The notes beneath the pieces were generated by a model, which worked only from the letters and a program-made list of their open reading frames with translations, ran no database searches and was not told the DNA's origin. Both the position numbers and the translations under genes were made by a program. A stretch of DNA of 60,327 nucleotides from a virus (lineage: Duplodnaviria > Caudoviricetes). The DNA lies in IMG/VR virus record IMGVR_UViG_3300032288_004972, positions 1-60,327 of that record. One strand, 5' to 3'. Positions 2,398-46,373 of this stretch are shown in pieces. The first letter of the stretch is position 1. The number at the start of each line of letters is the position of its first letter.

Positions 2398-2401
2398 TTC
2401 A

Positions 2402-7110: not shown

Positions 7111-7116
7111 TGGCCA

Positions 7117-18016: not shown

Positions 18017-18729
18017 TGTCCATATATAATCTGCTTTGCGGCATAGGAGCAATTCAGGCTTCGCCCGGCACGCTTGTCAATACGCAAGAATTTACTTCGG
18101 CAGGCTCGGGAACATGGATAAAACCCGGCAACGCATCCTATGCAATCATTGAAATTTGGGCCGGAGGCGGCTCTGGCGGCATGGCGTACAATGGCCAAAC
18201 TTCCTCCCAAGGTGGACAGGGAGGGGCGTACGTTAGTTACCAAGCAAGCATGGCCGATATGGATGCAACCGAAGAATTGCTCGTAGCCGCTGGCGGCGCG
18301 AGGGTACAAAGTAATGGTGGCGCTGGCCTCCCCGGCGGTTTCTCTTGGTTTGGCAGGGCTATATGGGCGAAAGGCGGATATGGTGGCGGCGGGCAATTTG
18401 TTACCGCTTCTGCAGCCGCTAACTATACACCGACAGTCTCCCGCCCTTGGACATTGTTGAGCAGTGAAAATGGGGCGGGAAGCACCTATTCCGCCAATGG
18501 GACAAATGCAACATACGCAGGCGCTGGCGGTGGCGGCGCTTTCAATCTTGGCACCGGGTCATATCTTGGCGGCACATCAACCTACGGCGGTAATGGTGGC
18601 GCAGGAAACAACGGTGGCGGGAACGCCACTGCCGGATCACAACCCGGCGGCGGCGGCGGAGCAGCAATTTACGTTTATTTCTCCGGCGCGGGCGGCAACG
18701 GAAAAATTGTCGTCAAGAGCTACGCCTAA
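18016..18729 (+). CDS. Glycine-rich tail tip/fibre protein
   Basis: FTSAGSGTWIKP...WAGGGSGG...GGGGG...GAGGNGKIVV glycine-rich domain. Confidence 0.7.
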   Translation: MSIYNLLCGIGAIQASPGTLVNTQEFTSAGSGTWIKPGNASYAIIEIWAGGGSGGMAYNGQTSSQGGQGGAYVSYQASMADMDATEELLVAAGGARVQSNGGAGLPGGFSWFGRAIWAKGGYGGGGQFVTASAAANYTPTVSRPWTLLSSENGAGSTYSANGTNATYAGAGGGGAFNLGTGSYLGGTSTYGGNGGAGNNGGGNATAGSQPGGGGGAAIYVYFSGAGGNGKIVVKSYA

Positions 18730-19223
18730 ATATATTTTATCGACCTTTTATATTGTGACAGCGATTGATAGCAGATTTTGTGATGATCTTCGCAATAAGT
18801 TTTACCTGACTTTTTGCGGCCGCAGAAAATGGCCCCGGCTCCGGAGCCTTCGACAATGAAGCGACAGGAGGAATCTGTCAGTCCCATTATTGCGACGCGC
18901 TCTTTCCTGCGTTTTGCTTTTTCGAAAATTTCATTGACCGCCGGAATTTCGGAGGGCTTGGACAGGAAGGCGAGCTTTTGGGGTTTTTCTCGCTTTGGCA
19001 GAACAACGGGATTTGCCTTTTTGCCTTTTTTCTTCTGAGGAGGCAGCGCCCTTACAGAGACAGATATGCCGCGTTCGCGCATTCTCGATATTCTGCCTGA
19101 AATCGAATTGCGCGTTGTGCCGAGTTCGATGGCAATTTCTCCCATCGAAAGCCCGCTGTTCCATGCTCGAATGATAAAATCTTCGATCTGTTCGACGGGG
19201 ATCTTGTTTTTTCTATCGAGCAT
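18726..19223 (-). CDS. gcrA: GcrA-like cell-cycle transcription regulator
   Basis: N-terminal WNSGLSMGEIA...TRNSISGRISR HTH; C-terminal LTDSSCRF...FCG...YCEDH. Confidence 0.85.
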   Translation of the reverse strand: MLDRKNKIPVEQIEDFIIRAWNSGLSMGEIAIELGTTRNSISGRISRMRERGISVSVRALPPQKKKGKKANPVVLPKREKPQKLAFLSKPSEIPAVNEIFEKAKRRKERVAIMGLTDSSCRFIVEGSGAGAIFCGRKKSGKTYCEDHHKICYQSLSQYKRSIKYI

Positions 19224-27290: not shown

Positions 27291-27468
27291 AACGTCGACC
27301 TGCCGAGGTCTAGTTTCCTTTTCAGAACAAGCACTTATCACACCAAACGTCCGCCCCCTGAAAAAAGTTCCCAAAAATCCAAAAAACAAGGTGCTTTTTA
27401 TAAAAAACCGGCGCAGTCTCAGCCCGTGGCAAAACAAAGCGATTTGCTTAAGCCCACAGGAGTCAAAA

Positions 27469-28275
27469 ATGGCAAAATCTGATACGCAGACCCTCGCTCC
27501 GGTCACTTCAAAGAGCGCCCTCCCAACCACCGCGAATGACGACATGTTCTTCTCTCAAGCCGGAGACGGCCTTGAGAACGTCAAGTCGAACGACCTCATC
27601 ATCCCCCGGCTCACCATTTTGCAGGCGTTGAGCCCGCAAGTGCAAGCCAAGAAGCCTGAATACATCCAAGGTGCGCAGGTCGGCGACATTTGCGACGTTG
27701 GCACCGGCGAGATTTTCGAGCCGCCGCTCGTGTTTCTCCCCGTTCACTACGTGAAGCAATATCTCGAGTGGGCACCGCGTTCTTCGGGCAAGGGACTGGT
27801 CAAGATCCATGACAGCGCTGACATCCTTGAGCAGTGCACGATGGACGAAAAGAACCGGGCGCATTTGCCTTCGGGGAACTACATCGCCGAGACCGCGCAG
27901 TTTTTCGGGCTGAACATTTCAGCCGGTGGACGGCGCTCGTTTCTCCCGATGTCAAGCACGCAGCTGAAAAAGGCCCGGCGCTGGTTGACGCTGGCGACGA
28001 GCGAAAAGGTTGCGCGCCCGGACGGTTCGACGTTCACGCCGCCGTTGTTCTACCGGACCTACAACATTTCCGTTGTTGACGAGAGCAACGCGGAAGGCTC
28101 GTGGGCGGGTTGGAAGATCGAGCGCGGCGCGAAGCTGCAGGAGCTCGGCGACGGCTGGCAAAACTTGTACAAAGAGGCGATGGACTTCCGTGACTCGATC
28201 AAGCGTGGCGAGCTCCGTGGTGACCTTGATCGCGAAGAAGGCAGCGCCGCAATGCATGACGACGCAGCGATGTGA
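27469..28275 (+). CDS. ssDNA-binding/recombination-type protein
   Basis: DLIIPRLTILQALSPQV motif, acidic C-terminal tail, first gene of the replication block; AGGAG RBS. Confidence 0.6.
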   Translation: MAKSDTQTLAPVTSKSALPTTANDDMFFSQAGDGLENVKSNDLIIPRLTILQALSPQVQAKKPEYIQGAQVGDICDVGTGEIFEPPLVFLPVHYVKQYLEWAPRSSGKGLVKIHDSADILEQCTMDEKNRAHLPSGNYIAETAQFFGLNISAGGRRSFLPMSSTQLKKARRWLTLATSEKVARPDGSTFTPPLFYRTYNISVVDESNAEGSWAGWKIERGAKLQELGDGWQNLYKEAMDFRDSIKRGELRGDLDREEGSAAMHDDAAM

Positions 28276-28284
28276 CGTCAACTG

Positions 28285-28312
28285 AGAGGAGGCGCAATGC
28301 CTCCTCTTTTTT
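28285..28312 (+). terminator. Rho-independent terminator
   Basis: agaggaggc-gcaat-gcctcctct followed by a T-run. Confidence 0.75.
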
Positions 28313-28329
28313 CGCCCTTTTTCGAGGAA

Positions 28330-28899
28330 ATGAAGATGACTGAGGATTTTGGTTTCGATATCGAGCAAGAGCAGACCGGCGACACCATGCAGCGCATGCG
28401 CGCCATGGCTTCGGAAGTGATTGCACAAGAGCGTCTCGTCGAAGAGCTTGAGGAAAACCTCGCTGAAATCAAGAAGCAGCTGAACAAGCTCAAGATGATT
28501 GAGCTCCCGGACCTCATGGCCGAATGCGGCATGAGCGAGTTGAAAACGGATGACGGCGTGACGATCAAGATCGAGGATTTTGTTTCCGGATCGCTGCCGA
28601 AAGACTTTGATAAGCGTGAAGCCGCTATTTCATGGCTCGAGGATCATGACGCTGCGGGCCTCATCAAGACGGAATTGACGCTCGCCTTCGAAAAGTCTCA
28701 GCACAATGAAGCCATGAGCCTCGCTGCGGAATTGCACGAGCGGGGTTATGATTCAGCCGCAAAGATGGGTGTTCATCCGCAAACGCTCATCGCTCATGTG
28801 AAAGAGCGCCTGCGCAAGGGCGAAGAAGTGCCGCTGGAGGTGCTGGGCCTTTACGCCGGGCGGACCGCAAAGATCAAATTCCCAAAGGTGAAAACATGA
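28330..28899 (+). CDS. Conserved phage replication-region protein
   Basis: Coiled coil, LPDLMAE, VHPQTL motifs. Confidence 0.6.
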   Translation: MKMTEDFGFDIEQEQTGDTMQRMRAMASEVIAQERLVEELEENLAEIKKQLNKLKMIELPDLMAECGMSELKTDDGVTIKIEDFVSGSLPKDFDKREAAISWLEDHDAAGLIKTELTLAFEKSQHNEAMSLAAELHERGYDSAAKMGVHPQTLIAHVKERLRKGEEVPLEVLGLYAGRTAKIKFPKVKT

Positions 28900-29519
28900 G
28901 CTTCCTTGCCAAGCGGTTCACCATCGCCTTTCAGCTTTCTTCGGTGCAACGGTTTTCTCGTGACTTCATGCAGAAGCCCGAGAACGTGCTTGAGCACATC
29001 GGCTTTTGCACATTTTACGCAACGCTGCTGGCCAAGAAGGCAGAGGCCGCTGGCATCAAGGTTGACTACGCTGCGCTCATGACCGCTGTCATGGCGCACG
29101 ACATCGACGAATCCGTGCTTGGGGACATGCCCCGCAGCACAAAATACCTGACGCCGCAGATCCGGAGCTCTGTTGCGAGAGCGGAAGAGATCGTCGTCGG
29201 CAAAATTTCTGACTGGCTCGGAACGAACCTTTCCCCCGCTTGGTTCAATGCAAAGGTCGGCCTCGAAGGGGAGATCCTGAAGCTCTCTGACATTGCCGCC
29301 GTCGTGTACAAAAACTGGGTTGAGGTTGAGATGCTGAACAACCGGAGCTTTCTCCGGGTTTGCCTCGAAACGCTTGGCTACATTGAATCAATCGAACGTG
29401 AGGATTACTCTTTTGTTTTTGCAGACGAGATCGAAGAACTCAAGACGATGGTTCGAATGATCCTGAACAAGCATGCTCCAACAGACGCTGATGAACTGTT
29501 TCTTCATGTAAGGAAATGA
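28896..29519 (+). CDS. HD-domain phosphohydrolase (YfbR/DatZ-like deoxynucleotidase)
   Basis: QRF...ENVLEH, AHDIDESVLGDMP, LKLSD. Confidence 0.85.
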   Translation: MSFLAKRFTIAFQLSSVQRFSRDFMQKPENVLEHIGFCTFYATLLAKKAEAAGIKVDYAALMTAVMAHDIDESVLGDMPRSTKYLTPQIRSSVARAEEIVVGKISDWLGTNLSPAWFNAKVGLEGEILKLSDIAAVVYKNWVEVEMLNNRSFLRVCLETLGYIESIEREDYSFVFADEIEELKTMVRMILNKHAPTDADELFLHVRK

Positions 29520-30613
29520 AAATGCAAATCGAACGCGCTCCCGTCACGGCCCAACTGGAATGGTACGGTTCCATCACCCAGATCAAAAAGGCATGGGAGG
29601 TTTCCCGGCCTGCGGATTTCGATCCGAAAATCGAGAACATCCTCAAGATGGACGTTCCGGTCAATGAGTTTTTGCAATTGCAGTTCGCCGTCACTGCGCC
29701 GGTGCTGGTCCGTGAAGTCATTTGCTCCATGCGCAATCATGTCGTTTGGGCGCGCTCAAGCCGCGTCGACGACCTCACGCATTGGAAGGTCGCCCACACT
29801 GTCACAGAAGACCAATTTTTTGAATTGCAGATCAAGCACGGAAGGATGATGCACGAAATGAAATCGCATCATCAGGACGACTTCCGCCGTCTGTTGCCGC
29901 TGGCCTACATGACCACGTTCAGTTTTCAAATGTCGGTGCGTGACTTTGTGCGATTCTCGATCTGGGCAGAGCGGACGAGGAACGTGGTTTTGTACGTTTT
30001 CTGCAAGCGCTGCCTGACGGCGCTTGAGGAGGCGCTGCCGGTCCTCGCGTCATGGATTGATGATTTGGTTCGTGACGGCGCGTATTCTGTCGGGGAATTG
30101 TTGCCGCGTCCATCTTCGCAAGACAATGCGCGGCTCGGCGCTTTCATCGGCATCACCAGCAAGGTCCCTCTTGGACTCAGGGCGCAATTCATCCGTCACC
30201 GGGCGATCATGATTGCCGACAATTTCGCGGACTACCTCGCTCCAGAATATATGACGGCCGACATGACGGCGCTCGTTGATTTGCAAGCAGTTATGCATGA
30301 GGATTTCGCCATTCAGCTTGTTCGCAAGCGCAGTTGCTGGATTGCGCAGACGGATTTGTGGAAGCCGATCATTGGCCAGCTTTCCACGTTCATCGCGACG
30401 GACCAAGCGCTCCCTTGTTACGACGGCCAATGCCGGTTCAAGAGAGACAATGACCTGCGCAAGGCGGACAAAGATCCTTCGCCGCCCTGCCCCGTTGCGG
30501 CCCGGTTGCATGGCGAACGGATGAAGCCATTGCATGCCATCGCAGCATATGACTACGCTGAAAACCGCCCCAACAAGAACTTCTGGATGGAGGAGATCGA
30601 CAATGTTGCGTGA
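29516..30613 (+). CDS. Tandem-duplicated, divergent ThyX (flavin-dependent thymidylate synthase)-like protein
   Basis: Domain 1 APVLVREVICSMRNHVVWARSSR and DFRRLLPLAYMTT; domain 2 RAQFIRHR and RSCWIAQ; Cys-rich tail. Confidence 0.72.
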   Translation: MKMQIERAPVTAQLEWYGSITQIKKAWEVSRPADFDPKIENILKMDVPVNEFLQLQFAVTAPVLVREVICSMRNHVVWARSSRVDDLTHWKVAHTVTEDQFFELQIKHGRMMHEMKSHHQDDFRRLLPLAYMTTFSFQMSVRDFVRFSIWAERTRNVVLYVFCKRCLTALEEALPVLASWIDDLVRDGAYSVGELLPRPSSQDNARLGAFIGITSKVPLGLRAQFIRHRAIMIADNFADYLAPEYMTADMTALVDLQAVMHEDFAIQLVRKRSCWIAQTDLWKPIIGQLSTFIATDQALPCYDGQCRFKRDNDLRKADKDPSPPCPVAARLHGERMKPLHAIAAYDYAENRPNKNFWMEEIDNVA

Positions 30614-31082
30614 ATTTATTTACGATGTTTATCTCGCAGGACCGTTTTTCACCGAAGAGCAAAAGTCTATCATGGACAGAGCGAAGCGGCTGCTGACGCA
30701 GCGCCGAATCGTTGTCGCAGATCCAAGAGACTTTTCACCGATCATTTCAGACATGACGGAAAAGCCGACGCCGGAGCTCTGCAAGGAAATCTACGACGGT
30801 AATATATACGCGATGAGCAACTCAGCTTGTTGCTTCGCGAACATTGACTTCAAGGACACCGGAACGTCTTTCGAGATGGGTTGGTTCGCCTCGAGGCGCA
30901 GACCAATCTTAACTTTCTCATTCAAGGGCGCTGAGGCGAACGTCATGCTCGCTCAATCATCGAAGGGTCATGTTTCTTCCGCACCGGATTTCGAGAATTT
31001 TGTATGGGACGCAGAGCCGCTGATTCGTAACCAGACGCTCGAGACGCTCGGCGTTCTTCCGCTCGCGGAGGCGGACGAATGA
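30603..31082 (+). CDS. Nucleoside 2-deoxyribosyltransferase / dNMP N-glycosidase family
   Basis: VYLAGPFF and DTGTSFEMGW motifs. Confidence 0.88.
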   Translation: MLREFIYDVYLAGPFFTEEQKSIMDRAKRLLTQRRIVVADPRDFSPIISDMTEKPTPELCKEIYDGNIYAMSNSACCFANIDFKDTGTSFEMGWFASRRRPILTFSFKGAEANVMLAQSSKGHVSSAPDFENFVWDAEPLIRNQTLETLGVLPLAEADE

Positions 31083-31531
31083 AAGACCGCACTGTCATCT
31101 TCGACATTGACGGGACGCTCTCCGATGCGACGCACCGCCAGCCCTTGGCACAGACGCGCCAATGGGATGCGTTTCATGAGAAATGCCTCGAAGATCCCGT
31201 CATCGCGCCAATCGCGGATCTCATGCGATGGATGGCCGTCCGTTGCACCACGATTTTGCTGACAGGTCGCAACGAGCGGTTCCGACACCTGACAGTTCAG
31301 TGGCTCGAGCAGGCCGGGCTCGCAGGAATGTACGACAAACTTCTCATGCGTCCGGACAATGATTTCAGCGTTGATCATGACATGAAGATCGCAGCCATCG
31401 AAAAGCATTTCAAAAGCAAGGATGCTGCGCTCGAGACCGTTTGGTTCGTTGTTGAAGACAGGGACTCGGTTGTCGAGGCGCTTCGGAACTATGGGTTCAC
31501 TGTCCTTCAACCATGCACAGGGAGCTATTGA
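31079..31531 (+). CDS. HAD phosphatase (T4 PseT/PNKP phosphatase-domain-like)
   Basis: FDIDGTL, LTGR, LLMRP, VEDR motifs. Confidence 0.88.
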   Translation: MKDRTVIFDIDGTLSDATHRQPLAQTRQWDAFHEKCLEDPVIAPIADLMRWMAVRCTTILLTGRNERFRHLTVQWLEQAGLAGMYDKLLMRPDNDFSVDHDMKIAAIEKHFKSKDAALETVWFVVEDRDSVVEALRNYGFTVLQPCTGSY

Positions 31532-31545
31532 TTCGCAGGGAGAGA

Positions 31546-31737
31546 ATGATCATAGATTCGGAATCATCAACGCAAGGCAATAGTCAAGAAAGGCCCGTCA
31601 TAGAAATCGCGAAATTCGTTGACTGGATTATGCGGGAGATTTTCGATGACAGCGAGCCTGATGGCAGCGAGAACACGTCCTATCCTCAGCGTGAGGTCTT
31701 CTACAGATCGAGCAACAGCGCAACACTTTGGGCGTGA
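31546..31737 (+). CDS. Hypothetical protein
   Basis: GGGAG RBS; short acidic ORF. Confidence 0.4.
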   Translation: MIIDSESSTQGNSQERPVIEIAKFVDWIMREIFDDSEPDGSENTSYPQREVFYRSSNSATLWA

Positions 31738-31778
31738 CAGTCGGGAGAGACCGGCAGCCAACTTAGAAGGCCAGAAAT

Positions 31779-31991
31779 ATGAACGACCGCAGCAAGCCAA
31801 GAATGGACGCTAACGAAGCGCTCTCAAATGTCGGGAACGCCGTCAAAGTCTTTGGCGAGGATTACGAATATGTCGGCGCTTTGACTGCCGTCTTTACAAA
31901 AAGGCGCGGGGGCGGTGTCCGTGTCGTTGTCGAGGACGACAATGGGCGTCTTTTCATCCACAAGCCCGAAAACCTCCGTACCAACAAATAA
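31779..31991 (+). CDS. Small SH3-like beta protein, hypothetical
   Basis: VKVFGEDYEYVG...VRVVVEDDNGRLFIH. Confidence 0.55.
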   Translation: MNDRSKPRMDANEALSNVGNAVKVFGEDYEYVGALTAVFTKRRGGGVRVVVEDDNGRLFIHKPENLRTNK

Positions 31992-32000
31992 GGCCCCACA

Positions 32001-32354
32001 ATGGACGATATGCGCCGAGACGTTGAGATTAAAAACGCCGTTATCGAAAAGGCGACCATCACGTGCGGGGACCGTGGGATCCTAGACGCTTGGCTGATGC
32101 TGAACTATGGCGGCAGTGGGCAGGGCTTTGGTGGCTACGTGCTGTATTGCCCCAAGTCGTTCAGCCATCACAAAATTGAGTCTTTCGCCGGGCACCACAT
32201 CTTTCGCTGCATGGAAATTGCTGGCGTTACTGACTGGCACGCCATGCCGGGAAAGACGATCCGCGTAAAGATCGAGAACGGGTTAATTCGGGCAATCGGG
32301 CACATCGTAAAAGATGACTGGTTTTGCCCCAAGGAAGATTTTGCCAACCTCTGA
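32001..32354 (+). CDS. Hypothetical protein
   Basis: Clean ORF; GQGFGGY and IGHIVKDDWF motifs. Confidence 0.6.
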   Translation: MDDMRRDVEIKNAVIEKATITCGDRGILDAWLMLNYGGSGQGFGGYVLYCPKSFSHHKIESFAGHHIFRCMEIAGVTDWHAMPGKTIRVKIENGLIRAIGHIVKDDWFCPKEDFANL

Positions 32355-32382
32355 ACAACAAAGACCCCACAAGGAGCTATTG

Positions 32383-32703
32383 ATGAAAACCGTACCGCAA
32401 CTGCTGCGAGATGCAGCAGGGATCTATGAAGAGCGCAACAAACTTTACGGCGACAACTACAAGCGCTTCGGCGAAATCATGGCATTGCTTTTTCCGAACA
32501 ATGCGGAGCTCGCCTTTTCGAACGAGTTCAATCGTTTCGGAATTTTTGTGCAGATGGTCTCGAAGCTGACGCGCTACGCCGAAAACTTTGACCGGGGCGG
32601 ACATCGCGATTCGTTGGACGACCTCGCCGTTTATGCGATGATGCTACGCGAACTCGATGATGAGAATGCGGCGGCGGAAGTCGATCGGGAGCGTGGAAAG
32701 TGA
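32383..32703 (+). CDS. DUF6378 / nucleotide-modification-associated domain 1 (Nmad1)-like helical protein
   Basis: ERNKLYGD...KLTR...HRDSLDDLAVYAMM pattern. Confidence 0.72.
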   Translation: MKTVPQLLRDAAGIYEERNKLYGDNYKRFGEIMALLFPNNAELAFSNEFNRFGIFVQMVSKLTRYAENFDRGGHRDSLDDLAVYAMMLRELDDENAAAEVDRERGK

Positions 32704-33233
32704 AATTTCCAGCTCCGTTTATCCAAGTGGGATCTTGTATTGCAAGATGCAAGGGGAAACATCGCTATGCTCCTAAAACGGAGACTTATCAGAAGGACGA
32801 TTATGTTCGAATCATATTTAATGGAGAAAGATGGAGCGCGCACAGGCTAAGTTTTTCTCTTAATGTTGAAAAAATTCCAAGACGCCCGAACTCGAAAAAG
32901 GAAGGGCTTGTTCTTCATACTTGTGATAATAAATGGTGCATCAATCCTGATCATTTATATCTTGGAACCTCGAAGCAGAACGCCATTGACAATGCAGAGA
33001 GAAATATTGAGTGGAGAAGAAAGAGGTCCGAGATCCAAAAAAGGATTGGAGCTCCAAAGGAATCAGGATTCAAGATTTATTGGGAGAGGGTGGGTCTCGG
33101 AGAGCGCTCCGAGTTTATTAAAAGAAGGCAAAAGATATTTGCAGAAAAGTATCTATCCGACAATGATTTTTTAAAGAGAAGAGCGAGGGCGACGAAAGAA
33201 GGCTGGAGAAGAAGGAAGGAGGAGTTAAAATGA
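32700..33233 (+). CDS. HNH homing endonuclease
   Basis: AHRLSF, VLHTCDNKWCINPDHLYLGTSKQN; visibly AT-richer than flanks. Confidence 0.9.
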   Translation: MKFPAPFIQVGSCIARCKGKHRYAPKTETYQKDDYVRIIFNGERWSAHRLSFSLNVEKIPRRPNSKKEGLVLHTCDNKWCINPDHLYLGTSKQNAIDNAERNIEWRRKRSEIQKRIGAPKESGFKIYWERVGLGERSEFIKRRQKIFAEKYLSDNDFLKRRARATKEGWRRRKEELK

Positions 33234-33757
33234 AAACTCTTGTCATAGATTGTGAAACTACGGGCCTCGTCAAGAACCGGCTCGTGCCGTTGGCTCGTCA
33301 GCCGAAGGTCATTGAGCTTTTCGGCCTGACAGTCGAAGAAGAGGACGAGGTGCTCGCGTTCTCAAGCCTTTTCAATCCCGGACACGGGGTTGATGCCGAC
33401 ACGACCCGCATCACCGGCATCACCGACAACATGCTTGCGGAAGCCGAATCGTTTGCCGAAAAAGCACAGGCAATCAAAGACGCCATCGAGCGCCATGATG
33501 AAGTCGTCGCTCACAACTTGAGCTTCGATAAAACGATGATCGACCTTGAGATGGAGCGCGTCGGGTTGACGATTGAATGGCCGCAACTCATTTGCACTGT
33601 TGAAGCGACGGTGCACTTGAAAGGCCATCGATTGAACCTGAATGCGCTGCACCATTTTCTTTTCGACGAGGAATTCACCGGCGCGCACCGGGCGGAAAAC
33701 GACGTGCGTGCACTTGCCCGCTGTTTCAAAGAGCTCAGGAAAAGGGGGATCGTATGA
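33230..33757 (+). CDS. DEDDh 3'-5' exonuclease (DnaQ/epsilon-like)
   Basis: DCETTG, AHNLSFD, AHRAEND. Confidence 0.9.
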   Translation: MKTLVIDCETTGLVKNRLVPLARQPKVIELFGLTVEEEDEVLAFSSLFNPGHGVDADTTRITGITDNMLAEAESFAEKAQAIKDAIERHDEVVAHNLSFDKTMIDLEMERVGLTIEWPQLICTVEATVHLKGHRLNLNALHHFLFDEEFTGAHRAENDVRALARCFKELRKRGIV

Positions 33758-34191
33758 ATTGGAATGATTATTTCATGAACTTTGCACACATGGCGAAGTT
33801 CAAATCAAAAGACAGCACGCAGGTGGGGGCAATCCTTGTTGGGCCGGAGAACGAGATCCGGTTGACGGGGTTCAACGGACCGCCCAAGGGCGTGAAGGAA
33901 ACGGACGAGCGCCGCGAGCGCCCGACGAAATATCTCTACACTTCACACGCGGAAGAGAATTTGATCGCCTTCGCAGCACGAGAAGGAATTCGCACGAACG
34001 GATGCACCGTTTATGTCACGCACATGCCTTGCGCCCGTTGTGCCCGCACGCTCATTCAAGCGGGCGTGAAGAGGATCGTTTACGACGCGGGGAACACTTC
34101 CATGCCCACGGAGGAATTCAAAGCAGCCGAAGAAATGTTTTTCGAAGCGCGTATCTCTGTCACTCCATTCGCCTCCAAGGAGGAAAAATGA
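33754..34191 (+). CDS. dCMP deaminase
   Basis: SKD..TQVGA, GFNG, HAEEN, PCARC. Confidence 0.92.
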   Translation: MNWNDYFMNFAHMAKFKSKDSTQVGAILVGPENEIRLTGFNGPPKGVKETDERRERPTKYLYTSHAEENLIAFAAREGIRTNGCTVYVTHMPCARCARTLIQAGVKRIVYDAGNTSMPTEEFKAAEEMFFEARISVTPFASKEEK

Positions 34192-34358
34192 ACCTCGCCA
34201 TCGCCTTTTGCATTCTCGGGAGTGCGCTTTTCACGCTCGTCGGAACTGTGTTCGATTGGTTCGATGGCAAATGGTCTCCGCTCGATGTTTTGTTCATCAC
34301 GACGGGCTCCGCCGTTTCCATCGTCTTCATTCTGTCAACCTTGTTTGGGCTGAAATGA
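34188..34358 (+). CDS. Small two-TM membrane protein
   Basis: MNLAIAFCILGSALF...; AAGGAGG RBS; 4-bp overlaps with both neighbours. Confidence 0.6.
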   Translation: MNLAIAFCILGSALFTLVGTVFDWFDGKWSPLDVLFITTGSAVSIVFILSTLFGLK

Positions 34359-37246
34359 TAAGGGTTCGCACGGGCTACAGCTTCCGCGTTGCCGCCGGAA
34401 TGATTGACGATGTCATGAGCCGCCTCGTTGAGGTTGGGGCGGCTTATGCACCAATTTCAGATCGCGCCAGCACATTCGGCTGGGTGCGCTGGTCCAAGCT
34501 CGCCAAAAAACATGGACTCAAGCCGCTCTTCGGCGTTGAGCTCGCGGTCAGCCCTTCAATCCATGCGAAAAAACCCAGCACAGACCATTGGACCTTTTTC
34601 CCGAAGCAGGACATCGCTTCCATCAATGAGCTCGTGCACCTCGCCACGTCGCAGTTCCGCTACGAGCCGCTGCTTTCCCTTGAGCAGGCCCTTTCAGCGC
34701 CGGGCTGTTTCAAGATAATTGGCAACCGCACGCCGCTCACGGACATCGATCCGGCCTTGTTGCAGCGCGACGACGTTTTCCTTGCGCTCTCGCCCTCCTG
34801 CGCAAAGGGCTACGTCGCGCAAGCGCTGGACCTCGGCCTCAAACTCGTGGCCTCTTCGGACAACAAATTCATCCGTCCTGACGACGAGGGGTTCTACGAA
34901 GTTTTGTGCGGGCGCGGCGCATCGACCCAGACCTATCCGCAGCATATAATGGGCCTGCAGGAGTGGGAAAAATCTGTGGGGAGGATCGCCCCTCCCGACG
35001 CAATTCAGGCTTCCATGGCCGCTGCAAGCGATCTGGCGGCCCTCGTCAAGGGGGAGCTCAGGCAAGCGAAAGTTCTGACGCCGGAAAAGCCGAAGACCCT
35101 TGAGCAGATGTGCCGTGAGGGCGCGGAAAAGCTCGGCGTCGACCTCACCGATCCGGTTTATGCCGCGCGGCTGAAGCGCGAACTGGACATGATTGCGCTC
35201 AAGGAGTTTGAGGACTATTTCTACATTATTGCGGACCTGATGGAATTCGCACGCAAGGTCATGCTCTGCGGCCCGGCGCGCGGGTCCAGCTGCGGATCGC
35301 TGGTTTGCTATCTCCTCCGCATCACGTCCATTGACCCCTTGAAGTGGGGCTTGCTGTTCGAGCGCTTCATCGACATCACGCGCAACGACCTGCCGGACAT
35401 CGACTTGGACTTCTCGGACCAGAAGCGCGACATGGTTTTCGAATACATGGAGAAGAAATATGGACGCGACCACGTGGCGCGGCTCGGTACGGTGGCGCTA
35501 TTCAGACCTCGATCCGCAATTGACGAAGCCGGAACTGCTCTGGGGGTTCCCCGTTGGCTCTGCGACAAGATGCTCGACGGACTCATCGTGCGTTCCGGCG
35601 GCGACTCCCGCGCCCTGCAAACGCTCGAAGACACATTCAACGAAACGGCTGCGGGCCGCGAGCTCCTCGGCAAGCATCCTGAAATTCTCGTCGCTGCAAA
35701 GATGGAAGGCCATCCACGGCATTTCTCGCAGCACGCTGCCGGGATCGTCGTCACTGAAAGGCCCGTCACGGATTTCGTCGCTGTGGACGCACGCACAGGC
35801 GCGACGCATTGCGACAAAAAAGATGCCGAAGAACTGAACCTGCTCAAGATCGACGCGCTCGGCCTGACGCAGCTGTCGGTTTTTGAGGACACGCTGGAGC
35901 TCGCCCGGCTGCCAATGGACTATCTTGAGAGAGCGCCGCTCGATGACCCGGCGGCAATCGCTGTCATCAACACGAAGCAATTCTCCGGCATTTTCCAGTT
36001 CAACGGACCGGCGCTGCAGTCAATCGTCAATCAAGTCAAGCTCAATTCACTTGAGGACATTGTTTCGACGACGGCGCTCGCTCGGCCGGGGCCGATGGCC
36101 GGGGGCTCGACGAATGAATGGGTCAAGCGCCGCAACGGCATCTCACCCATCACTTATCCTGATCCCATTTTCAAGCCATACCTTGAGCGCACGGCAGGCA
36201 TCATCACTTACCAAGAGCAGGTCATGCAAATCTGCCGCGAGGTTGGTGGCATGTCTTGGGAGGACGTTTCGGTCCTCCGCAAAGCAATGAGCAAGTCGCT
36301 CGGCAAAGAGTTTTTCGACCAATACGGAAACAAATTCAAGGAAGGCGCTGTCCGCAAGGGCATTGCTGCGGACGTGCTTGACAAGGTTTGGGACGAGCTT
36401 TGCGCTTATGGCGCGATGGGCTTCAATCAATCGCACTCTGTGGCCTATGGCATCATCAGCTATTGGTGTGCCTATCTCAAAGCGCACCACCCGGTTGAGT
36501 TCGCGGCGGCAACGCTCTCGCACGAGGGCGACCCGGCCAAGCAGATTATGATCCTGAGAGAAATGCATGCGGAGGGTGTGCCTTACGTTCCGGTCGACAT
36601 TGAATTCTCAACTGACAAGTGGACGGTTGGTTCCCGCGACGGAAAGAAATTTCTCGTCGGTCCCATCAGCAACGTGAAAGGCATCGGCCCAAAGATGGTG
36701 AATGCCATCCTTTCGGCGCGCGCACGCAAGGAGCCACTCCCCGCGAGGGCAGAGAAGCTGCTGACGAACGCCACGACGGAAATTGACAGCCTCTGGCCCA
36801 TCAAGGACGCCATTGCGCGCCTCATGCCGGACCCCTCAGCGCGGAACATTCATACGCCCCCGACGCCGGTCGTCGACCTGCAATGCCGCGCGACCGATTG
36901 GACGGCGCTGACTTTCGCCTTGGTGGATCAGATCAAGCCACGAGATGAGAACGAGGCCGTGAACGTCGCCAAGCGGGGCGGCAAGCGCGTGACAGGGCCG
37001 ACGACCTCGCTCAACTTGACGATCCGCGACGACACCGACAGAATTTTCGGCAAGATTGATCGCTTCAAGTTCGACAAGCTCGGTCAAGAGATCGTGGACC
37101 GTGGCAAGGCAGGCAAAGCGATCTATGCATTCAAAGGGACAGTGCCGCGCGGGTTCCGCATGATGCGGATCGAGGCTGTGCGGTTCATCGGTTTCGTCGA
37201 CGGTTCGACGGAAGAGCGCAAGGAAGAGGAAAGCGTCAATGGCTGA
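34355..37246 (+). CDS. dnaE: DNA polymerase III alpha subunit (family C)
   Basis: GPARGS, LLFERF, PDIDLDF, HAAGIVV, LLKIDALG, YQEQVM, FNQSH; PHP His motif replaced by RVRTGYS. Confidence 0.95.
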   Translation: MIRVRTGYSFRVAAGMIDDVMSRLVEVGAAYAPISDRASTFGWVRWSKLAKKHGLKPLFGVELAVSPSIHAKKPSTDHWTFFPKQDIASINELVHLATSQFRYEPLLSLEQALSAPGCFKIIGNRTPLTDIDPALLQRDDVFLALSPSCAKGYVAQALDLGLKLVASSDNKFIRPDDEGFYEVLCGRGASTQTYPQHIMGLQEWEKSVGRIAPPDAIQASMAAASDLAALVKGELRQAKVLTPEKPKTLEQMCREGAEKLGVDLTDPVYAARLKRELDMIALKEFEDYFYIIADLMEFARKVMLCGPARGSSCGSLVCYLLRITSIDPLKWGLLFERFIDITRNDLPDIDLDFSDQKRDMVFEYMEKKYGRDHVARLGTVALFRPRSAIDEAGTALGVPRWLCDKMLDGLIVRSGGDSRALQTLEDTFNETAAGRELLGKHPEILVAAKMEGHPRHFSQHAAGIVVTERPVTDFVAVDARTGATHCDKKDAEELNLLKIDALGLTQLSVFEDTLELARLPMDYLERAPLDDPAAIAVINTKQFSGIFQFNGPALQSIVNQVKLNSLEDIVSTTALARPGPMAGGSTNEWVKRRNGISPITYPDPIFKPYLERTAGIITYQEQVMQICREVGGMSWEDVSVLRKAMSKSLGKEFFDQYGNKFKEGAVRKGIAADVLDKVWDELCAYGAMGFNQSHSVAYGIISYWCAYLKAHHPVEFAAATLSHEGDPAKQIMILREMHAEGVPYVPVDIEFSTDKWTVGSRDGKKFLVGPISNVKGIGPKMVNAILSARARKEPLPARAEKLLTNATTEIDSLWPIKDAIARLMPDPSARNIHTPPTPVVDLQCRATDWTALTFALVDQIKPRDENEAVNVAKRGGKRVTGPTTSLNLTIRDDTDRIFGKIDRFKFDKLGQEIVDRGKAGKAIYAFKGTVPRGFRMMRIEAVRFIGFVDGSTEERKEEESVNG

Positions 37247-37674: not shown

Positions 37675-37689
37675 GGCTTGGGGACAACA

Positions 37690-39969
37690 ATGAAAATTAA
37701 GTCGCTTTCAGAAATCCCTGCAGTGCAGGCATATCTCACGCGCATCGGAGCGCGCCCGCGTTCGCTCCGCACAGCGGTTGTGGAGGAACGACGCGGGGAC
37801 TATTGGTCAGACGTTGCGCTCATTCACTTCGCCACGGACGGCAAGGTGAAAGCGCCGGAGCTCTACGCTCCCACAGAGCGTGAGCGCTTGCAGATTGAGT
37901 TGGATTGTCAAGCCGTTCAGTGGCCGCAGTCCGCCGTCATCCCTGCAGGCATGGCGCTGCCGGAAAAAGTCAATGCGCTGCCGACGCAGGACATCTTCAC
38001 GTTCAAGAACATGAACGGGGAAATTCTGATGATCCAAACGCGGCAGATGGTCAAGGGCGAAAAGCGCTACGCGCCATGGACCTTTTGGGACGACGGCGAA
38101 TGGAGGATGATGGAGCCGGAAGGATTGCTCCCGCTTTGGGGCATGGAGCAACTCAACCATCATCAAGTCGTGTTCATTCATGAAGGTGCCAAAGCTGCTG
38201 CAACCATCCGCAAGATGGTTGACGCAAAAACGCCGGAGGACAGAGCGGCCCTCGCGGCTCATCCTTGGGGTGAGGAACTGCAGCACGCCGCCCATCTGGG
38301 ATGGATTGGAGGCGCTTTGTCGCCCTCCCGCACGGATTGGTCCATCCTCCGCAAAGCGGGCGTCAAGCGCGCCTACATCGTTTCTGACAACGATGCACCG
38401 GGCGTGGCGGCGGTCCCCGCCATTGCGCGCCATCTCCGCATTCCGACCTTCCAGCTGCAGTTCACGAATGAGTGGCCCGGCGGCTTCGACCTCGCCGATC
38501 CGTTCCCCGCCAAGATGTTCAAGGAGGTTGATGGGTTCAATTATTATGTTGGTCCCAGCTTCCGGGCTTGCTTGCATCCTGCCACATGGGCGACGGACCT
38601 GATCCCAAACCCCAAGGGCAAGCCGACGCCGATGCTGCGTGACAATTTCAAGGAGATGTGGTCCTACGTCGAGGAGGCCGATCTTTTTGTTTGCATCGAC
38701 ATGCCTGAGATTGTGCGGCCGGAATCAATCATGAACAAAATGCTCGCGGCCTTCTCGGACACCAACGAGACTTCGCGGCTGGTGGTGAAGGCTTACACGG
38801 GCCGCAGCGCAAAGCTTTGCTACCGCCCTGACAATCCCGGCAAGATCGTGACGGACAACACGACCTCGGCCATCAACTTGCATACCCCGACGCATATCAA
38901 AAGCCGCCCCGGTTCACCGGAGCCGTTCATTGAGTTCCTTGAGTATATGTTCCCCAATGAGAACGAACGCTACGAAGTTGCGCGTTGGTGCGCCACGCTC
39001 ATTGCGCGGCCTGATGTCAAGATGGAATATGGCATGTTGCTCGTCAGTGAGCGTCAAGGTGTCGGAAAGTCAACGCTCGGTGCGACGGTGCTTGCGCCGC
39101 TCGTGGGAATGCAAAACGTGGGCTACCCAACCGAAACGCAGATCGTGCAGTCGGAGTTCAACGGCTGGATGGCAAACAAGAGGTTGGTGATTGTTCATGA
39201 GATTTACTCCGGGCACTCGTGGAAGGCTTACAATAAGTTGAAGTCGGCCATCACGGACAAAGAGGTTGAGGTCAACGAGAAATACCAACGGACCTACACG
39301 ATTGAGAACTGGGCGCACGTGTTCGCTTGCTCGAATTCGCTGCGCGCTTTGAAGATGGAGGAGGATGATCGCCGTTGGTTTTATCCTGAAGTGACCGAGG
39401 AGAAGTGGAGCCGCGACAAGTTCGAACAATTCCACAATTGGATCAAGTCCGGGGGCCTCTCGATCATCAAGAACTGGGCCGAGGGCTTCGAGGACTACGT
39501 TGGCAAGGGTCAGGCCGCTCCCATGACGCAGCGCAAGCGCGACCTCATTGCGGACTCCCGGACGGAGGGCCAGCAAGAGGCAGCGGAGCTCGCAGGGGCG
39601 ATGAACCGGAAAAAGGAGCCGGTGGTCGTTGCGATGAAAGAGGTCGTCGAGTGGGTGCGCCAGTCGGTGCAAGGTCGGGTGTTCGACACCGACCTCGAGA
39701 TTCGCAAAACGATGAAGGAGAATGACACGTTCTGGTTCGACGATCGCATCTTGGTCAAGGGCCGATTGCAGTTTGCTGGCATGAATGAGAAGGCGCTCAA
39801 GAAGCTGCGGGAAAGCGGCTTTTCGATGAAGATTGTCAAGGGCACCGTCTCTTTGAACAAGAAGGAAAACGAAACGGAGGAGGAGTTCAAGGAGCGGAAG
39901 AAGGCATTCGCCGCGACGATGAGCGCCATGGCTGTCGCGCCGGGGGACGTGCTGGGCGTGGCGATGTGA
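37690..39969 (+). CDS. Primase-helicase (TOPRIM plus SF3-type P-loop NTPase)
   Basis: IHEGAKAA and SDND TOPRIM motifs; QGVGKST Walker A; VNEKY; CSN; DDRRW. Confidence 0.85.
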   Translation: MKIKSLSEIPAVQAYLTRIGARPRSLRTAVVEERRGDYWSDVALIHFATDGKVKAPELYAPTERERLQIELDCQAVQWPQSAVIPAGMALPEKVNALPTQDIFTFKNMNGEILMIQTRQMVKGEKRYAPWTFWDDGEWRMMEPEGLLPLWGMEQLNHHQVVFIHEGAKAAATIRKMVDAKTPEDRAALAAHPWGEELQHAAHLGWIGGALSPSRTDWSILRKAGVKRAYIVSDNDAPGVAAVPAIARHLRIPTFQLQFTNEWPGGFDLADPFPAKMFKEVDGFNYYVGPSFRACLHPATWATDLIPNPKGKPTPMLRDNFKEMWSYVEEADLFVCIDMPEIVRPESIMNKMLAAFSDTNETSRLVVKAYTGRSAKLCYRPDNPGKIVTDNTTSAINLHTPTHIKSRPGSPEPFIEFLEYMFPNENERYEVARWCATLIARPDVKMEYGMLLVSERQGVGKSTLGATVLAPLVGMQNVGYPTETQIVQSEFNGWMANKRLVIVHEIYSGHSWKAYNKLKSAITDKEVEVNEKYQRTYTIENWAHVFACSNSLRALKMEEDDRRWFYPEVTEEKWSRDKFEQFHNWIKSGGLSIIKNWAEGFEDYVGKGQAAPMTQRKRDLIADSRTEGQQEAAELAGAMNRKKEPVVVAMKEVVEWVRQSVQGRVFDTDLEIRKTMKENDTFWFDDRILVKGRLQFAGMNEKALKKLRESGFSMKIVKGTVSLNKKENETEEEFKERKKAFAATMSAMAVAPGDVLGVAM

Positions 39970-44054: not shown

Positions 44055-46373
44055 ATGGCATCACCCACCGGCCTCGGCGCGCTGCGCCTTGTTCAACCTG
44101 AACAGCCTTCGTTGTTTGAAGAGGCGAGCGACATCATCATTGAGCACGACGAGGGCCAGCCCTCGAACAACGTCGACGAGAAAGGCAACCTCATCTCGAT
44201 CGAGCACGCTGATGGCTCTATCACCATTTCGCTCGATGGCAATCCGCTGAAGTCTGCGGAGACCAGTGCCAACGATGATTGGTTCCGCAACCTCGCTGAA
44301 GAGATCCCGGACGGAACGCTTTACGCCATTGCTGATGGCTTGCTGCGTGGCATCAACGATGACATCGCCTCACGTCAAGAATGGATTGAGGATCGTGCGC
44401 AGGGCATCAAGCTGCTCGGCCTGAAGGTCGAAGTGCCCGGCACCGGAGGCAGCGCGGACGGTGCGCCGGTTGAAGGCATGAGCCGCGTGCGTCATCCGCT
44501 GTTGCTTGAGGCTGTGCTTCGCTTTCAAGCCAATGCGCGGTCTGAGTTCTTGCCGACGGACGGACCGACCAAGATCCGCCTCGACGACAACAATGCTGAC
44601 CTGCCCGAGGACCAGCTGGCCAATGCGTTCCAAAAGGACATCAATCATTACCTCACGGTGACGGCGAGCGAATACTACCCCGACACGGACCGCATGTTCC
44701 TGTTGCTCGGTTTCGGGGGCACGCAGTTCAAGAAGGTTTACTACTGCCCGCTGCGCCAGCGCCCGGTCAGCGAGACGGTCGACGCAGACGATTTGATCGT
44801 CAACAATGCAGCGACGGACCTCGAGAACGCTCGGCGCAAGACGCACCGAATCTTCATGCGGCCTTCGGTCGTCAAGCGCATGCAGCTGCTCGGTGTTTAC
44901 AAAGACATTGACCTCGGCATGCCGCGCGAAGCAACCCTCGATGCGGCGCAGCAAGAAAAGAACGAGCAGCAAGGAATCTCGCAGACCTCGATGAACCCCG
45001 ACGACCGCGATCGGGAGATTTACGAATGCTATTGCGAGCTCGACATTCCCGGCTTCGAGCACAAGTTCAAGGGCAAGCCCTCCGGGCTTGAAGTTCCCTA
45101 CCGCGTGACGATTGACGTTTCATCGCGGGAGATCCTCTCGCTGGTGCGGGACTACAACGAGGACACCAAGGAGCTTCCCGTTCAGCGCAAGACTTTCGTC
45201 AAATACACTTTCGTTCCCGGCCTCGGTTTCTACGACATTGGCCTACTCCACATTCTGGGCAACACAACGAATGCGGTGACAGCAGCATGGCGAGAGATGT
45301 TGGATGCAGGCATGTTCGCGAACTTCCCCGGCTTCCTGATGGCCGACACAGGCGGACGCCAAAACACCAACATCTTCCGCGTGCCTCCGGGCGGCGGGGC
45401 GCTGGTCAAGACGGGCGGGATGCCGATCAATCAGGCAGTGATGCCGTTGCCCTACAAGGAGCCCGGCCCAGCGTTGATGTCTCTTGTGACGAACATGGTT
45501 GAAACTGGCCAGCGTGTCGGCGGCACAGCGGAGCTCGCTGTGGGCGAAGGCAGGCAGGACGCACCTGTCGGCACGACGCTCGCGATGATCGATCAAGCTG
45601 TGAAGATCCTCAACTCCGTTCACAAGCGCATGCATACTTCGCAATCAGAAGAACTTGAACTGATCGTTCAATGCTTCCGCGAGAATCCAGAGAGCTTCTG
45701 GAAGCGCAACCGCAGGCCTGCAACCTCGTGGGATCAAACGACGTTCGAGCGCGCCTTGAACAATTACAATCTCATTCCGCAAGCCGATCCGAACACTTCC
45801 TCGCAGACGCAGCGCATCATGAAGATCATGGGCCTCAAGCAGCTGCAGGCAGGCAATCCAAATCTGTACAATGCCGTTGCGGTTGACACCGCCGCGCTGC
45901 AAGCGCTGGGCTGGTCCAACCCTGAGCGCTTCATGAAGCCGAAGGATCAGATCGAGCAGATGCCTCCTGAGATGATCAAGGAGATCGAAAAGCTGAAGCT
46001 CGAAAAGCAGAAAGCGGATGCGCTGACAATGCGGGCTCAATCTGATGCCAAGCGCAATGATGCGCAGGCAGCGCTCGATCAGGCAAGGCTGATGATTGAT
46101 TCGCAGCCGGAAGCTCAGGAGCAGCAAGACCCGGCAAAGATGTTGGACGCTGAGACCAAAGCGAAGATGGCCGACGTCAAGATCCAAGAGGTTGCGGTCA
46201 AGGCGGCGGACGCACACCTCGATGCGCAGAACCGTGCAGCGGATCGCGAGAGCCGCGAGCGCGTTGCGTTGGCAAAGATCGTTCAGGATGCATTGCAGCA
46301 CCCTGAAGGTCTCGGCGGGGTTCAGAACATTCTGACGCCGGATTATCTCCGTCAAATGAAGGAAGACAATTGA
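44055..46373 (+). CDS. Portal protein (P22-like, long helical barrel)
   Basis: HPLLLEAVLRFQA, FKKVYY, GFYDIGLLH, APVGTTLA; Q-rich C-terminus; position. Confidence 0.88.
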   Translation: MASPTGLGALRLVQPEQPSLFEEASDIIIEHDEGQPSNNVDEKGNLISIEHADGSITISLDGNPLKSAETSANDDWFRNLAEEIPDGTLYAIADGLLRGINDDIASRQEWIEDRAQGIKLLGLKVEVPGTGGSADGAPVEGMSRVRHPLLLEAVLRFQANARSEFLPTDGPTKIRLDDNNADLPEDQLANAFQKDINHYLTVTASEYYPDTDRMFLLLGFGGTQFKKVYYCPLRQRPVSETVDADDLIVNNAATDLENARRKTHRIFMRPSVVKRMQLLGVYKDIDLGMPREATLDAAQQEKNEQQGISQTSMNPDDRDREIYECYCELDIPGFEHKFKGKPSGLEVPYRVTIDVSSREILSLVRDYNEDTKELPVQRKTFVKYTFVPGLGFYDIGLLHILGNTTNAVTAAWREMLDAGMFANFPGFLMADTGGRQNTNIFRVPPGGGALVKTGGMPINQAVMPLPYKEPGPALMSLVTNMVETGQRVGGTAELAVGEGRQDAPVGTTLAMIDQAVKILNSVHKRMHTSQSEELELIVQCFRENPESFWKRNRRPATSWDQTTFERALNNYNLIPQADPNTSSQTQRIMKIMGLKQLQAGNPNLYNAVAVDTAALQALGWSNPERFMKPKDQIEQMPPEMIKEIEKLKLEKQKADALTMRAQSDAKRNDAQAALDQARLMIDSQPEAQEQQDPAKMLDAETKAKMADVKIQEVAVKAADAHLDAQNRAADRESRERVALAKIVQDALQHPEGLGGVQNILTPDYLRQMKEDN

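Follow-up and report, generated by a model that had tools for sequence, protein, structure and literature searches.

Thymidine-Hypermodifying Phages and the HD-ThyXL-NDT Locus

It is already known that phages can replace thymidine by way of a thymidylate-synthase homologue, and hypermodification of thymidine has been chemically shown in the phages SP-15, YerA41, and Carin-5 (PMC5977210, PMC12686479). The present study concerns three genes, HD, ThyXL, and NDT, of an uncultured phage (Duplodnaviria; Caudoviricetes) represented by the complete IMG/VR record IMGVR_UViG_3300032288_004972. This record, 60,327 bp with direct terminal repeats (DTR), was analysed as a whole and is called the window. 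HD belongs to the YfbR-like HD phosphohydrolases, ThyXL is a 365-aa protein with a predicted doubled ThyX fold, and NDT is a deoxyribosyltransferase or N-glycosidase of the nucleoside 2-deoxyribosyltransferase family. Comparison with the cultured phages suggests, with a probability of roughly 0.55, that this trio is a pre-replicative thymidine-replacement module, which would make a C5-substituted deoxyuridine other than thymidine.

In SP-15, 5-(4',5'-dihydroxypentyl)uracil takes the place of more than 50% of thymine (PMC5977210). In Carin-5, where about 75% of T is modified, there is a linker of 88 Da together with sugars and phosphate; YerA41 has about 70% modified T and a linker of 104 Da (PMC12686479). 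The DNA of YerA41 and Carin-5 is described as refractory to standard sequencing. In the SP-15 genome paper (Kropinski et al.; PMC5977210), gp130 was stated to have "no homologs" and was hypothesised to be a hydroxymethyluridylate synthase. The Carin-5 paper gives YerA41 QSM00782.1 (gp081) as a thymidylate-synthase homologue for 5hmdUMP synthesis, and it mentions genes 049 and 169 of Carin-5 (PMC12686479). A second, conventional thymidylate synthase is present in SP-15 (gp9) and in Carin-5 (gene 169) (PMC5977210, PMC12686479). The polymerases of YerA41 and phiLo accept 5hm-dUTP in vitro (PMC13697223). On the biosynthesis of SP-15-type hypermodified thymidine, a question that goes back to the 1970s, the hmdUMP-synthase hypothesis is the sole published proposal for the ThyX-like enzyme.

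The trio of the present phage lies in the early region, which is a single, translationally coupled operon on the + strand. HD (28896-29519, +), ThyXL (29516-30613, +), and NDT (30603-31082, +; its open reading frame (ORF) opens at 30534) are adjacent and overlapping. ATGA/GTGA start/stop overlaps are seen at six junctions (DUF7307/HD, HD/ThyXL, NDT/HAD, DUF6378/HNH, HNH/DnaQ, and DnaQ/deaminase), and NDT, whose probable start at 30603 is preceded by GGAGGAG, shares 11 nt with the end of ThyXL. These overlaps bear out the coupling claimed in a preliminary description of this DNA, and the genes named there are likewise present on the + strand at the stated coordinates, as judged from Pfam, PHROG, and structure evidence. 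Neither promoter-like sites (7 versus 5.9 in shuffles) nor terminator-like sites (19 versus 19.2) were in excess, and megablast of 28296-37246 against cultured phages gave zero matches.

Occurrence of the Trio

By sequence, ThyXL is homologous over its full length to SP-15 gp130, YerA41 gp081, and Carin-5 gene 049. A tblastn search found ThyXL in six of 50,697 cultured phage records, namely YerA41, its relative GN1, phiXF1, Carin-5, and SP-15 (two records). The matches covered 83-94% of the query at 22-29% identity, and the E values were 1e-33 for phiXF1, 7e-31 for YerA41, 4e-13 for Carin-5, and 2e-10 for SP-15. A YfbR-like HD (one gene each) and an NDT are above the Pfam cut-off in all four cultured ThyXL lineages; in phiXF1, NDT is directly downstream of ThyXL. 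By tblastn, homologues of HD occur in 25 of the 50,697 records, all six ThyXL records among them, and homologues of NDT in nine, including YerA41, GN1, and Carin-5. The 25 HD records also include the phages RHph_TM30 and LIS04, which are named in the Carin-5 paper as having related polymerases (PMC12686479).

A further cultured carrier is Vibrio phage 1.031.O. Its gp026, a 384-aa hypothetical protein, is a divergent ThyXL (hhalign probability 97.6, E 4e-12, 317 columns), and the gene order is HD, gp026, NDT. This phage would offer a tractable cultured system for the trio. After the trio, it has genes annotated as acyl-carrier-protein-like and as MazG NTP pyrophosphohydrolase (6450-7308).

From IMG/VR, 15 + 68 + 79 loci were fetched, which gave 140 distinct viral loci and 61 after dereplication at 95% nucleotide identity; these 61 were scored with iteratively built hidden Markov models (HMMs). 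NDT stands beside ThyXL in 61/61 loci. HD is present in 55 of them, and in the six loci without it, ThyXL is at most 220 bp from a contig end. When at least 1.5 kb is available on both flanks of ThyXL, HD and NDT are always present (45/45), with the trio confined to 2.0-3.5 kb. The order in these 45 loci is HD-ThyXL-NDT in 26, ThyXL-NDT-HD in 16, and ThyXL-HD-NDT in three; the trio can be upstream or downstream of DnaE, depending on the locus. Its occurrence in every adequately flanked locus means that the arrangement is far beyond chance, and the HD-ThyXL-NDT trio is a conserved core.

In a distant relative (locus L016, 9059-10413), an HAD_2 hydrolase and a CTP_transf_3 cytidylyltransferase (1.2e-43) stand between ThyXL and NDT. 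This insert may point to a chemistry of sugar nucleotides in some forms of the module.

The ThyXL family is large in metagenomes: an exhaustive profile search, counted at the 50% identity level, gave 572 representatives at E<=1e-3, 346 at E<=1e-10, and 192 at E<=1e-30. Fusion forms within it (P0123 with an N-terminal DUF559 endonuclease and P0070 without a Pfam domain) were uninformative.

Fold and Motifs of ThyXL

With the Pfam Thy1 profile (PF02511, ThyX or flavin-dependent thymidylate synthase, FDTS), ThyXL scored 16.3 bits, below the cut-off of 24.8. phmmer against PDB sequences gave nothing, PHROGs held no family for ThyXL, and the ThyXL family profile matched PBCV-1 ThyX at E 0.05 at best. 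The AlphaFold (AF2) model, which was made from 22 homologues, had a pLDDT of 91.3 and a pTM of 0.86, and Foldseek matched it to ThyX structures at a probability of 1.0 and E 1.5e-7, with 156 matches at E<=1e-3. The N-half (about residues 6-190) aligns to the whole ThyX monomer of Helicobacter pylori (3n3y) with a Z of 14.4 and an rmsd of 2.4 over 176 residues in VIA-align, and the next unrelated entry reached only Z 3.5. The C-half was folded separately (pLDDT 88.6) and compared, without Foldseek, with 48,161 chains. The best five matches were all ThyX or PolB (Z 5.5-6.2, 98-107 residues), and the sixth-ranked match dropped to Z 3.8. ThyXL is thus predicted to consist of two ThyX-like domains, with strong evidence for the N-half and moderate evidence for the C-half, and at these strengths the matches justify the label "tandem ThyX-like" given in the preliminary description.

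The N-half carries the motifs R73-N-H75-V-V-W-A-R-S-S-R83 and Q120-D-x-x-R124...P128...T133...R142-D. The C-half carries Q224-x-x-R227-H228-R229...D235, and F-A-D stands where S-x-R is expected. We take RHR-x7-S-x-R to be the ThyX motif, of which the PBCV-1 form appears in the alignment. A contiguous RHR-x7-S-x-R within one domain is absent from ThyXL; the signature is divided between the halves, and the QxxRHR of the C-half and the R-x-x-LP...T...R-D of the N-half align to PBCV-1 ThyX. The alignment including the cultured homologues has 23 invariant columns, among them W27, S30, R31, D46, P48, R66, R73, W78, A79, Q120, D121, R142, Q224, R227, R272, Q278, W282, D311, and R315. Four cysteines (C274, C301, C306, and C325) are invariant in the ThyXL clade of the present phage and missing from YerA41 and SP-15. 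Because of this, they probably form a clade-specific structural site, and they do not define the chemistry. A prediction of a ThyXL-NDT complex, made without controls, scored 0.00 against a mark of 0.32, which counts neither for nor against binding.

The retained fold and motifs could also be explained if ThyXL were a genuine, though very divergent, flavin-dependent thymidylate synthase that is supplied by the dCMP deaminase encoded downstream, with HD and NDT recycling host deoxynucleotides and bases and the DNA being canonical. dCMP deaminase and thymidylate synthase together make up the classic dTMP route. The ThyX fold occurs in both halves, QxxRHR and R-x-x-LP are kept, and ThyXL is the only thymidylate-synthase-like gene in the complete genome: PF00303 (ThyA) had 0 matches there, with its positive control matched in 10/14 genomes, and ThyXL was the sole Thy1-like gene in a genome-wide Pfam search (16.2 bits). 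Since ThyA, dUTPase (none was found in searches of the complete genome), and any other Thy1-like gene are lacking, ThyXL fills the role of the thymidylate synthase. Furthermore, it occupies the slot of the canonical ThyX in the Serratia phage MyoSmar, the nearest cultured phage by DnaE (about 36% identity), and the genome assembles from ordinary metagenomes.

Against this explanation stands, first, the distance from ThyX itself: Thy1 stays below its cut-off, and hhalign of ThyXL with the syntenic canonical ThyX of MyoSmar gave a probability of 0.8%, so that ThyXL is neither an orthologue nor a drifted copy of it. Second, SP-15 and Carin-5 have their conventional thymidylate synthases besides ThyXL, which argues against redundancy between the gp130-type enzyme and thymidylate synthase, and the cultured carriers are limited to thymidine-hypermodifying phages and their like. 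Third, a 5'-nucleotidase opposes dTMP supply, the 59 scanned ORFs showed no thymidine kinase, and NDT, although obligatory (61/61), takes no part in making dTMP de novo. An ordinary supply of dTMP with salvage, which the preliminary description had kept in view, appears less likely than thymidine replacement but is a live rival to it.

HD and NDT Partners

HD matches PF12917 at 68.4 bits (cut-off 25.9; 8.5e-19) and phrog_7076 at 6e-12. Its closest PDB matches are Lin2634 (3mzo, 1.2e-9) and YfbR (2.7e-4), and the metal-binding H...HD...D residues are present in the translation. By profile and motif, HD is assigned to the YfbR-like 5'-deoxynucleotidase family. NDT matches PF05014 at 64.1 bits (cut-off 28.8; 1.7e-17) and the PDB entries 6evs (2.7e-7) and 1s2d (3.2e-5), in alignments that span the catalytic positions. 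Y33, D108, G110, E114, and N136 (Y; D-x-G-x-x-x-E; N) are invariant in two alignments. By profile and residues, NDT is assigned to the nucleoside 2-deoxyribosyltransferase superfamily. We take the Glu of D-x-G-x-x-x-E to be the nucleophile, and the N-terminal Tyr and the Asn presumably have catalytic roles as well. The Asp of this motif is, we assume, replaced by Ser in the dNMP-specific Rcl/DNPH1 branch. Its retention in the NDT proteins would fit deoxynucleoside substrates, such as an HD 5'-nucleotidase would provide.

HD, NDT, and the deaminase are all enzymes that work on free nucleotides, and no DNA-level modification enzyme was recognised in Pfam scans of 59 ORFs. One might suppose from this that the trio changes no DNA base, and that it acts by reshaping the nucleotide pools of the host or by producing an analogue, as free nucleoside or nucleotide, that serves takeover or counter-defence. 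The trio is situated between recombination and replication genes, however, and is co-transcribed with DnaQ and DnaE, and the cultured carriers are phages in which thymidine replacement has been chemically shown. A function confined to the free pools is thus very unlikely.

Proposed Thymidine Replacement

The proposal of a thymidine-replacement module draws on what the analysis shows: which folds and families the proteins have, how the operon is built, and that the trio is conserved and, among cultured phages, restricted to the thymidine-hypermodifying kind. It also draws on ThyXL being the only thymidylate-synthase-like gene of the complete genome, with the trio in the slot that a canonical ThyX has in MyoSmar. 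We infer the substrate and the product, and what each partner does, as follows. The dCMP deaminase (33754-34191, +), found at this locus in this genome only, would raise dUMP. ThyXL, as a doubled and rewired flavin-type ThyX, would put a non-methyl substituent on C5 of dUMP. HD and NDT would act on deoxynucleotides and deoxynucleosides, either to destroy competing dTMP and dT or to supply the substituent. The phage DnaE and DnaQ would then replicate using the product of the ThyXL pathway. The present phage probably replaces thymine similarly to the cultured carriers of the trio. The preliminary description had supposed a dUMP modifier, hydrolases acting on the competing nucleotides, and a dedicated polymerase; this part is supported by comparison, namely by the homologues in SP-15, YerA41, and Carin-5 and by their HD and NDT partners. 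Its statement that the cluster matches no nameable pathway has to be revised, because the gene set matches the SP-15/YerA41/Carin-5 kind of thymidine-hypermodifying phage.

Several points weigh against this proposal. ThyXL keeps QxxRHR and R-x-x-LP...R-D, so that ordinary flavin/folate methylation of dUMP is conceivable. The genome and its 61 relatives were assembled from ordinary shotgun metagenomes, and any modification is therefore probably small or partial. For the present phage the proposal depends on gene comparison, the phage being known as a sequence. The 61 loci all come from one broad group of DnaE phages and do not make up a set of independent events; the independent evidence for the trio consists of the permuted gene orders and the five cultured lineages. 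In addition, Pfam scans of the 59 ORFs of the window reported no dNMP kinase, thymidine kinase, or glycosyltransferase cluster, and 5-hydroxymethyldeoxyuridine (5-hmdU) DNA kinase and aGPT-Pplase were also unreported by Pfam in these ORFs, for which no dedicated profiles were run and several short ORFs were left unscanned. Among the scanned ORFs there is thus nothing recognisable to bring a modified dNMP to the triphosphate or to elaborate it further.

Two candidate features were rejected or weakened. A family-defining catalytic metal or Fe-S site formed by the four cysteines was dropped, since YerA41 and SP-15 are without them. The other is a short-chain dehydrogenase/reductase (SDR) as a specific partner in the pathway. 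An SDR adjoins ThyXL in SP-15, precedes it by about 3 kb in Carin-5, and occurs in 13/61 viral loci; YerA41 has three SDRs, elsewhere in the genome. However, MyoSmar also has an SDR (adh_short, 3.9e-29; L149, 4943-5620), two genes past its canonical ThyX, and none was found in the complete genome of the present phage. Together with the three SDRs of YerA41, this weakens both this candidate and a link between the presence of an SDR and the linker mass. The SDR may serve in flavin or pterin supply for ThyX-type enzymes generally, rather than in side-chain reduction.

A special case of the thymidine-replacement proposal is the published model for the SP-15 group. In this model, ThyXL would be a dUMP hydroxymethylase, 5-hmdU would be incorporated into the DNA, and HD and NDT would only exclude dT; no further decoration would follow here, because neither a kinase nor aGPT-Pplase nor a DNA glycosyltransferase was recognised among the scanned ORFs. 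The SPO1-type strategy combines a dCMP deaminase with an enzyme that modifies dUMP and a hydrolase that removes dTMP, which agrees with the model. So do the proposed assignments of gp130 (PMC5977210) and of YerA41 gp081 (PMC12686479), and the in vitro incorporation of 5hm-dUTP by the YerA41 and phiLo polymerases (PMC13697223). In the literature searched, which did not extend to subscription journals, no enzyme assay of a family member was found. Walker and Mandel (1978) reportedly, to judge by the title, found the whole dihydroxypentyl base to be made as a nucleoside triphosphate, and a second title of 1978 is said to place a ribose label in the side chain. A base made at the triphosphate level and a ribose-labelled side chain, as far as titles can tell, fit ill with a one-carbon precursor that is extended after replication. 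Moreover, the model leaves NDT, present in 61/61 loci, without a necessary role. 5-hmdU as the final product seems unlikely.

The model also competes with a more specific version of the thymidine-replacement proposal, in which the side chain would be derived from deoxyribose. ThyXL would be a flavin-dependent reductive C5-alkylase, and its carbon donor would be a pentose aldehyde, not methylene-tetrahydrofolate. HD would convert a dNMP to the deoxynucleoside, and NDT would cleave this via a Glu-deoxyribosyl intermediate, freeing 2-deoxyribose. ThyXL would condense the open-chain aldehyde with dUMP via a flavin N5 iminium and then reduce the adduct. The product would be 5-(polyhydroxypentyl)-dUMP, a precursor of the SP-15-type dihydroxypentyl base. 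Such a route would explain the inseparable trio (45/45) and the five-carbon side chain, as well as the ribose label and the appearance of the base at the triphosphate level that the 1978 titles indicate. By arithmetic, dihydroxypentyl-dU equals dT + 88 and trihydroxypentyl-dU equals dT + 104, so that the +88 and +104 Da linkers (masses from PMC12686479) would be accounted for. The present phage, having no SDR, would carry a less reduced form. We regard this route as speculative and rather unlikely.

Neighbouring Genes and Comparison with MyoSmar

Upstream of the trio are genes for a Pam3 gp34-like protein (27391-28275, +) and a DUF7307 protein (28297-28899, +). Directly downstream is an HAD_PNKP phosphatase (31079-31531, +), which scores 65.6 bits against a cut-off of 27.6 (PF25109, 6.8e-18), matches Pnkp1 (4xrp) at 1.2e-5, and is 28% identical (1e-7) to residues 8-149 of MyoSmar gp035. 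A small DUF6378/Nmad-like protein follows at 32383-32703 (+; the ORF opens at 32314 and the start is probable). It scores 17.5 bits with the DUF6378 Pfam profile, below the cut-off of 27.1, but matches phrog_4889 at 1e-12, and it is 34% identical (1e-16, BLASTP) to residues 368-455 of MyoSmar gp035. In the Atlas, its neighbour cluster bears the name "nucleotide modification associated domain", and phmmer against PDB sequences gave nothing.

In MyoSmar, the order is a canonical ThyX (Thy1 97.8 bits), the 472-aa HAD-DUF6378 fusion gp035, the SDR, further genes, DnaQ, and DnaE; phrog_4889 shows the HAD-DUF6378 fusion too. Since this fusion stands beside a canonical ThyX, HAD and DUF6378 are backbone genes of the replication module. 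They were rejected as parts of the thymidine-replacement module, although the preliminary description had counted the HAD and the Nmad1/DUF6378-like protein among the modification genes. In cultured phage genomes, PF19905 and PF25109 had 0 matches, with the controls likewise silent.

The dCMP deaminase has 79.8 bits with PF00383 (cut-off 25; 1.5e-22) and matches phrog_174 at 2.3e-38, and the HAE and PCxxC zinc motifs are found in its translation; the profiles and motifs identify it as a dCMP deaminase. Its HMM matched 0/61 related loci, and among the ORFs of these loci and the window it matched its own gene only. The deaminase is thus an accessory of this genome alone. The cluster proposed in the preliminary description is not a single unit: HD, ThyXL, and NDT are linked (45/45), HAD (16/61) and the DUF6378-like protein (52/61) belong to the backbone, and the deaminase is specific to this genome.

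Two features are additional to that description, an HNH homing endonuclease (32700-33233, +; PF05551 1.4e-7, PF13392 2.5e-5), which seems to be an insertion and has no counterpart in 15 related viral loci, and three small ORFs of 74, 70, and 117 aa (31513-32354, +). By tblastn, the small ORFs had no match in 15 related viral and four cultured-phage loci; the 117-aa ORF is the only one with a PHROG (phrog_30930, function unknown). An exact 12-nt direct repeat, GGAGCTATTGAT, at 31521-31532 and 32373-32384 flanks this small-ORF segment of about 850 bp (2 matches versus 0.01 expected). The DUF6378-like gene has its ribosome-binding site and start region in the repeat GGAGCTATTGAT. Relatives have DUF6378 immediately after HAD, which gives the segment the look of an insertion at a junction that was duplicated. 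HAD, the DUF6378-like protein, HNH, and the three small ORFs all lie outside the module.

The operon continues with the DnaQ-like 3'-5' exonuclease (33230-33757, +; PF00929 3.1e-22, phrog_192 1e-36), the deaminase, and the phage DnaE-type replicative polymerase (34208-37246, +; PF07733 8.2e-67, PF17657 1.7e-38). A DUF5906 primase-helicase is encoded at 37678-39969 (+).

Elsewhere in the window, a Methyltransf_24 protein (29.7 bits, above the cut-off) and a weak GT2-plus-TPR protein (21.7 bits, below the cut-off) are encoded among tail-fibre and lysis genes (2363-4074). A GcrA-like cell-cycle regulator (PF07750, 9.7e-18) is encoded on the - strand at 18726-19223, which hints at an alphaproteobacterial host. 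An SU10-type portal and adaptor are among the structural genes. Between portal and head genes, a 1,397-aa polyvalent protein (46370-50563) has an LPD23 domain, a weak M78 peptidase match, and a C-terminal InPase pyrophosphatase (4.6e-47).

Comparison with Known Systems

Three points are new with respect to the literature searched, whose scope did not include supplements either: the predicted doubling of the ThyX-derived enzyme, its constant linkage with HD and NDT, and the presence of the trio instead of ThyX across a large group of uncultured phages with DnaE. The 572 family representatives suggest that thymidine replacement extends well beyond a few large cultured phages, which matters for how phages evade restriction, for bias in virome sequencing, and for new flavoenzyme chemistry. 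The trio is a minimal set of three genes, about 2.2 kb, suited to expression and assay in E. coli, and the present phage adds a complete genome that has a dCMP deaminase of its own and lacks an SDR.

The fold seen in ThyX/FDTS (3n3y; PBCV-1 2cfa/4fzb; TM0449) and in the UMP/dUMP methylase PolB (4p5a) is predicted for both halves of ThyXL. ThyX assembles from four subunits of about 220 aa each, whereas ThyXL seems to have two ThyX-like domains on one chain of 365 aa. The backbone order around DnaQ and DnaE in MyoSmar matches that of the present phage. The fused HAD-DUF6378 of MyoSmar corresponds to two separate genes here, and the slot with one canonical ThyX corresponds to HD-ThyXL-NDT.

The replacement systems of the SPO1, phiW-14, M6, and ViI type have the logic proposed here, that is, to raise dUMP, to substitute C5 before replication, and to remove dTMP and dTTP. 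They employ a dUMP hydroxymethylase of the ThyA family, followed by 5-HMUDK and aGPT-Pplase, whereas the modifier here would be ThyX-derived and no ThyA-family enzyme is present. An NDT-family partner occurs here, and these systems are not described as needing one (PMC8989533). Post-replicative hypermodification based on 5-hmdU (Lee et al. 2018, 2021) likewise starts from a ThyA-family dUMP hydroxymethylase, in which the present genome differs.

SP-15, YerA41, and Carin-5 are phages of 113-222 kb, whereas the present phage has 60 kb with DTR, DnaE with DnaQ, and no SDR. They have SP15-like PolA-UDG polymerases and sugar/glycosyltransferase clusters (PMC12686479, PMC13697223); no DNA-glycosylation cluster was recognisable in the present phage. 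The set of four cysteines distinguishes its ThyXL from those of YerA41 and SP-15, and the identity to the cultured homologues remains at the 22-29% given above. In spite of these differences, the combination of HD and NDT is common to the present phage and to the whole SP-15/YerA41/Carin-5 group.

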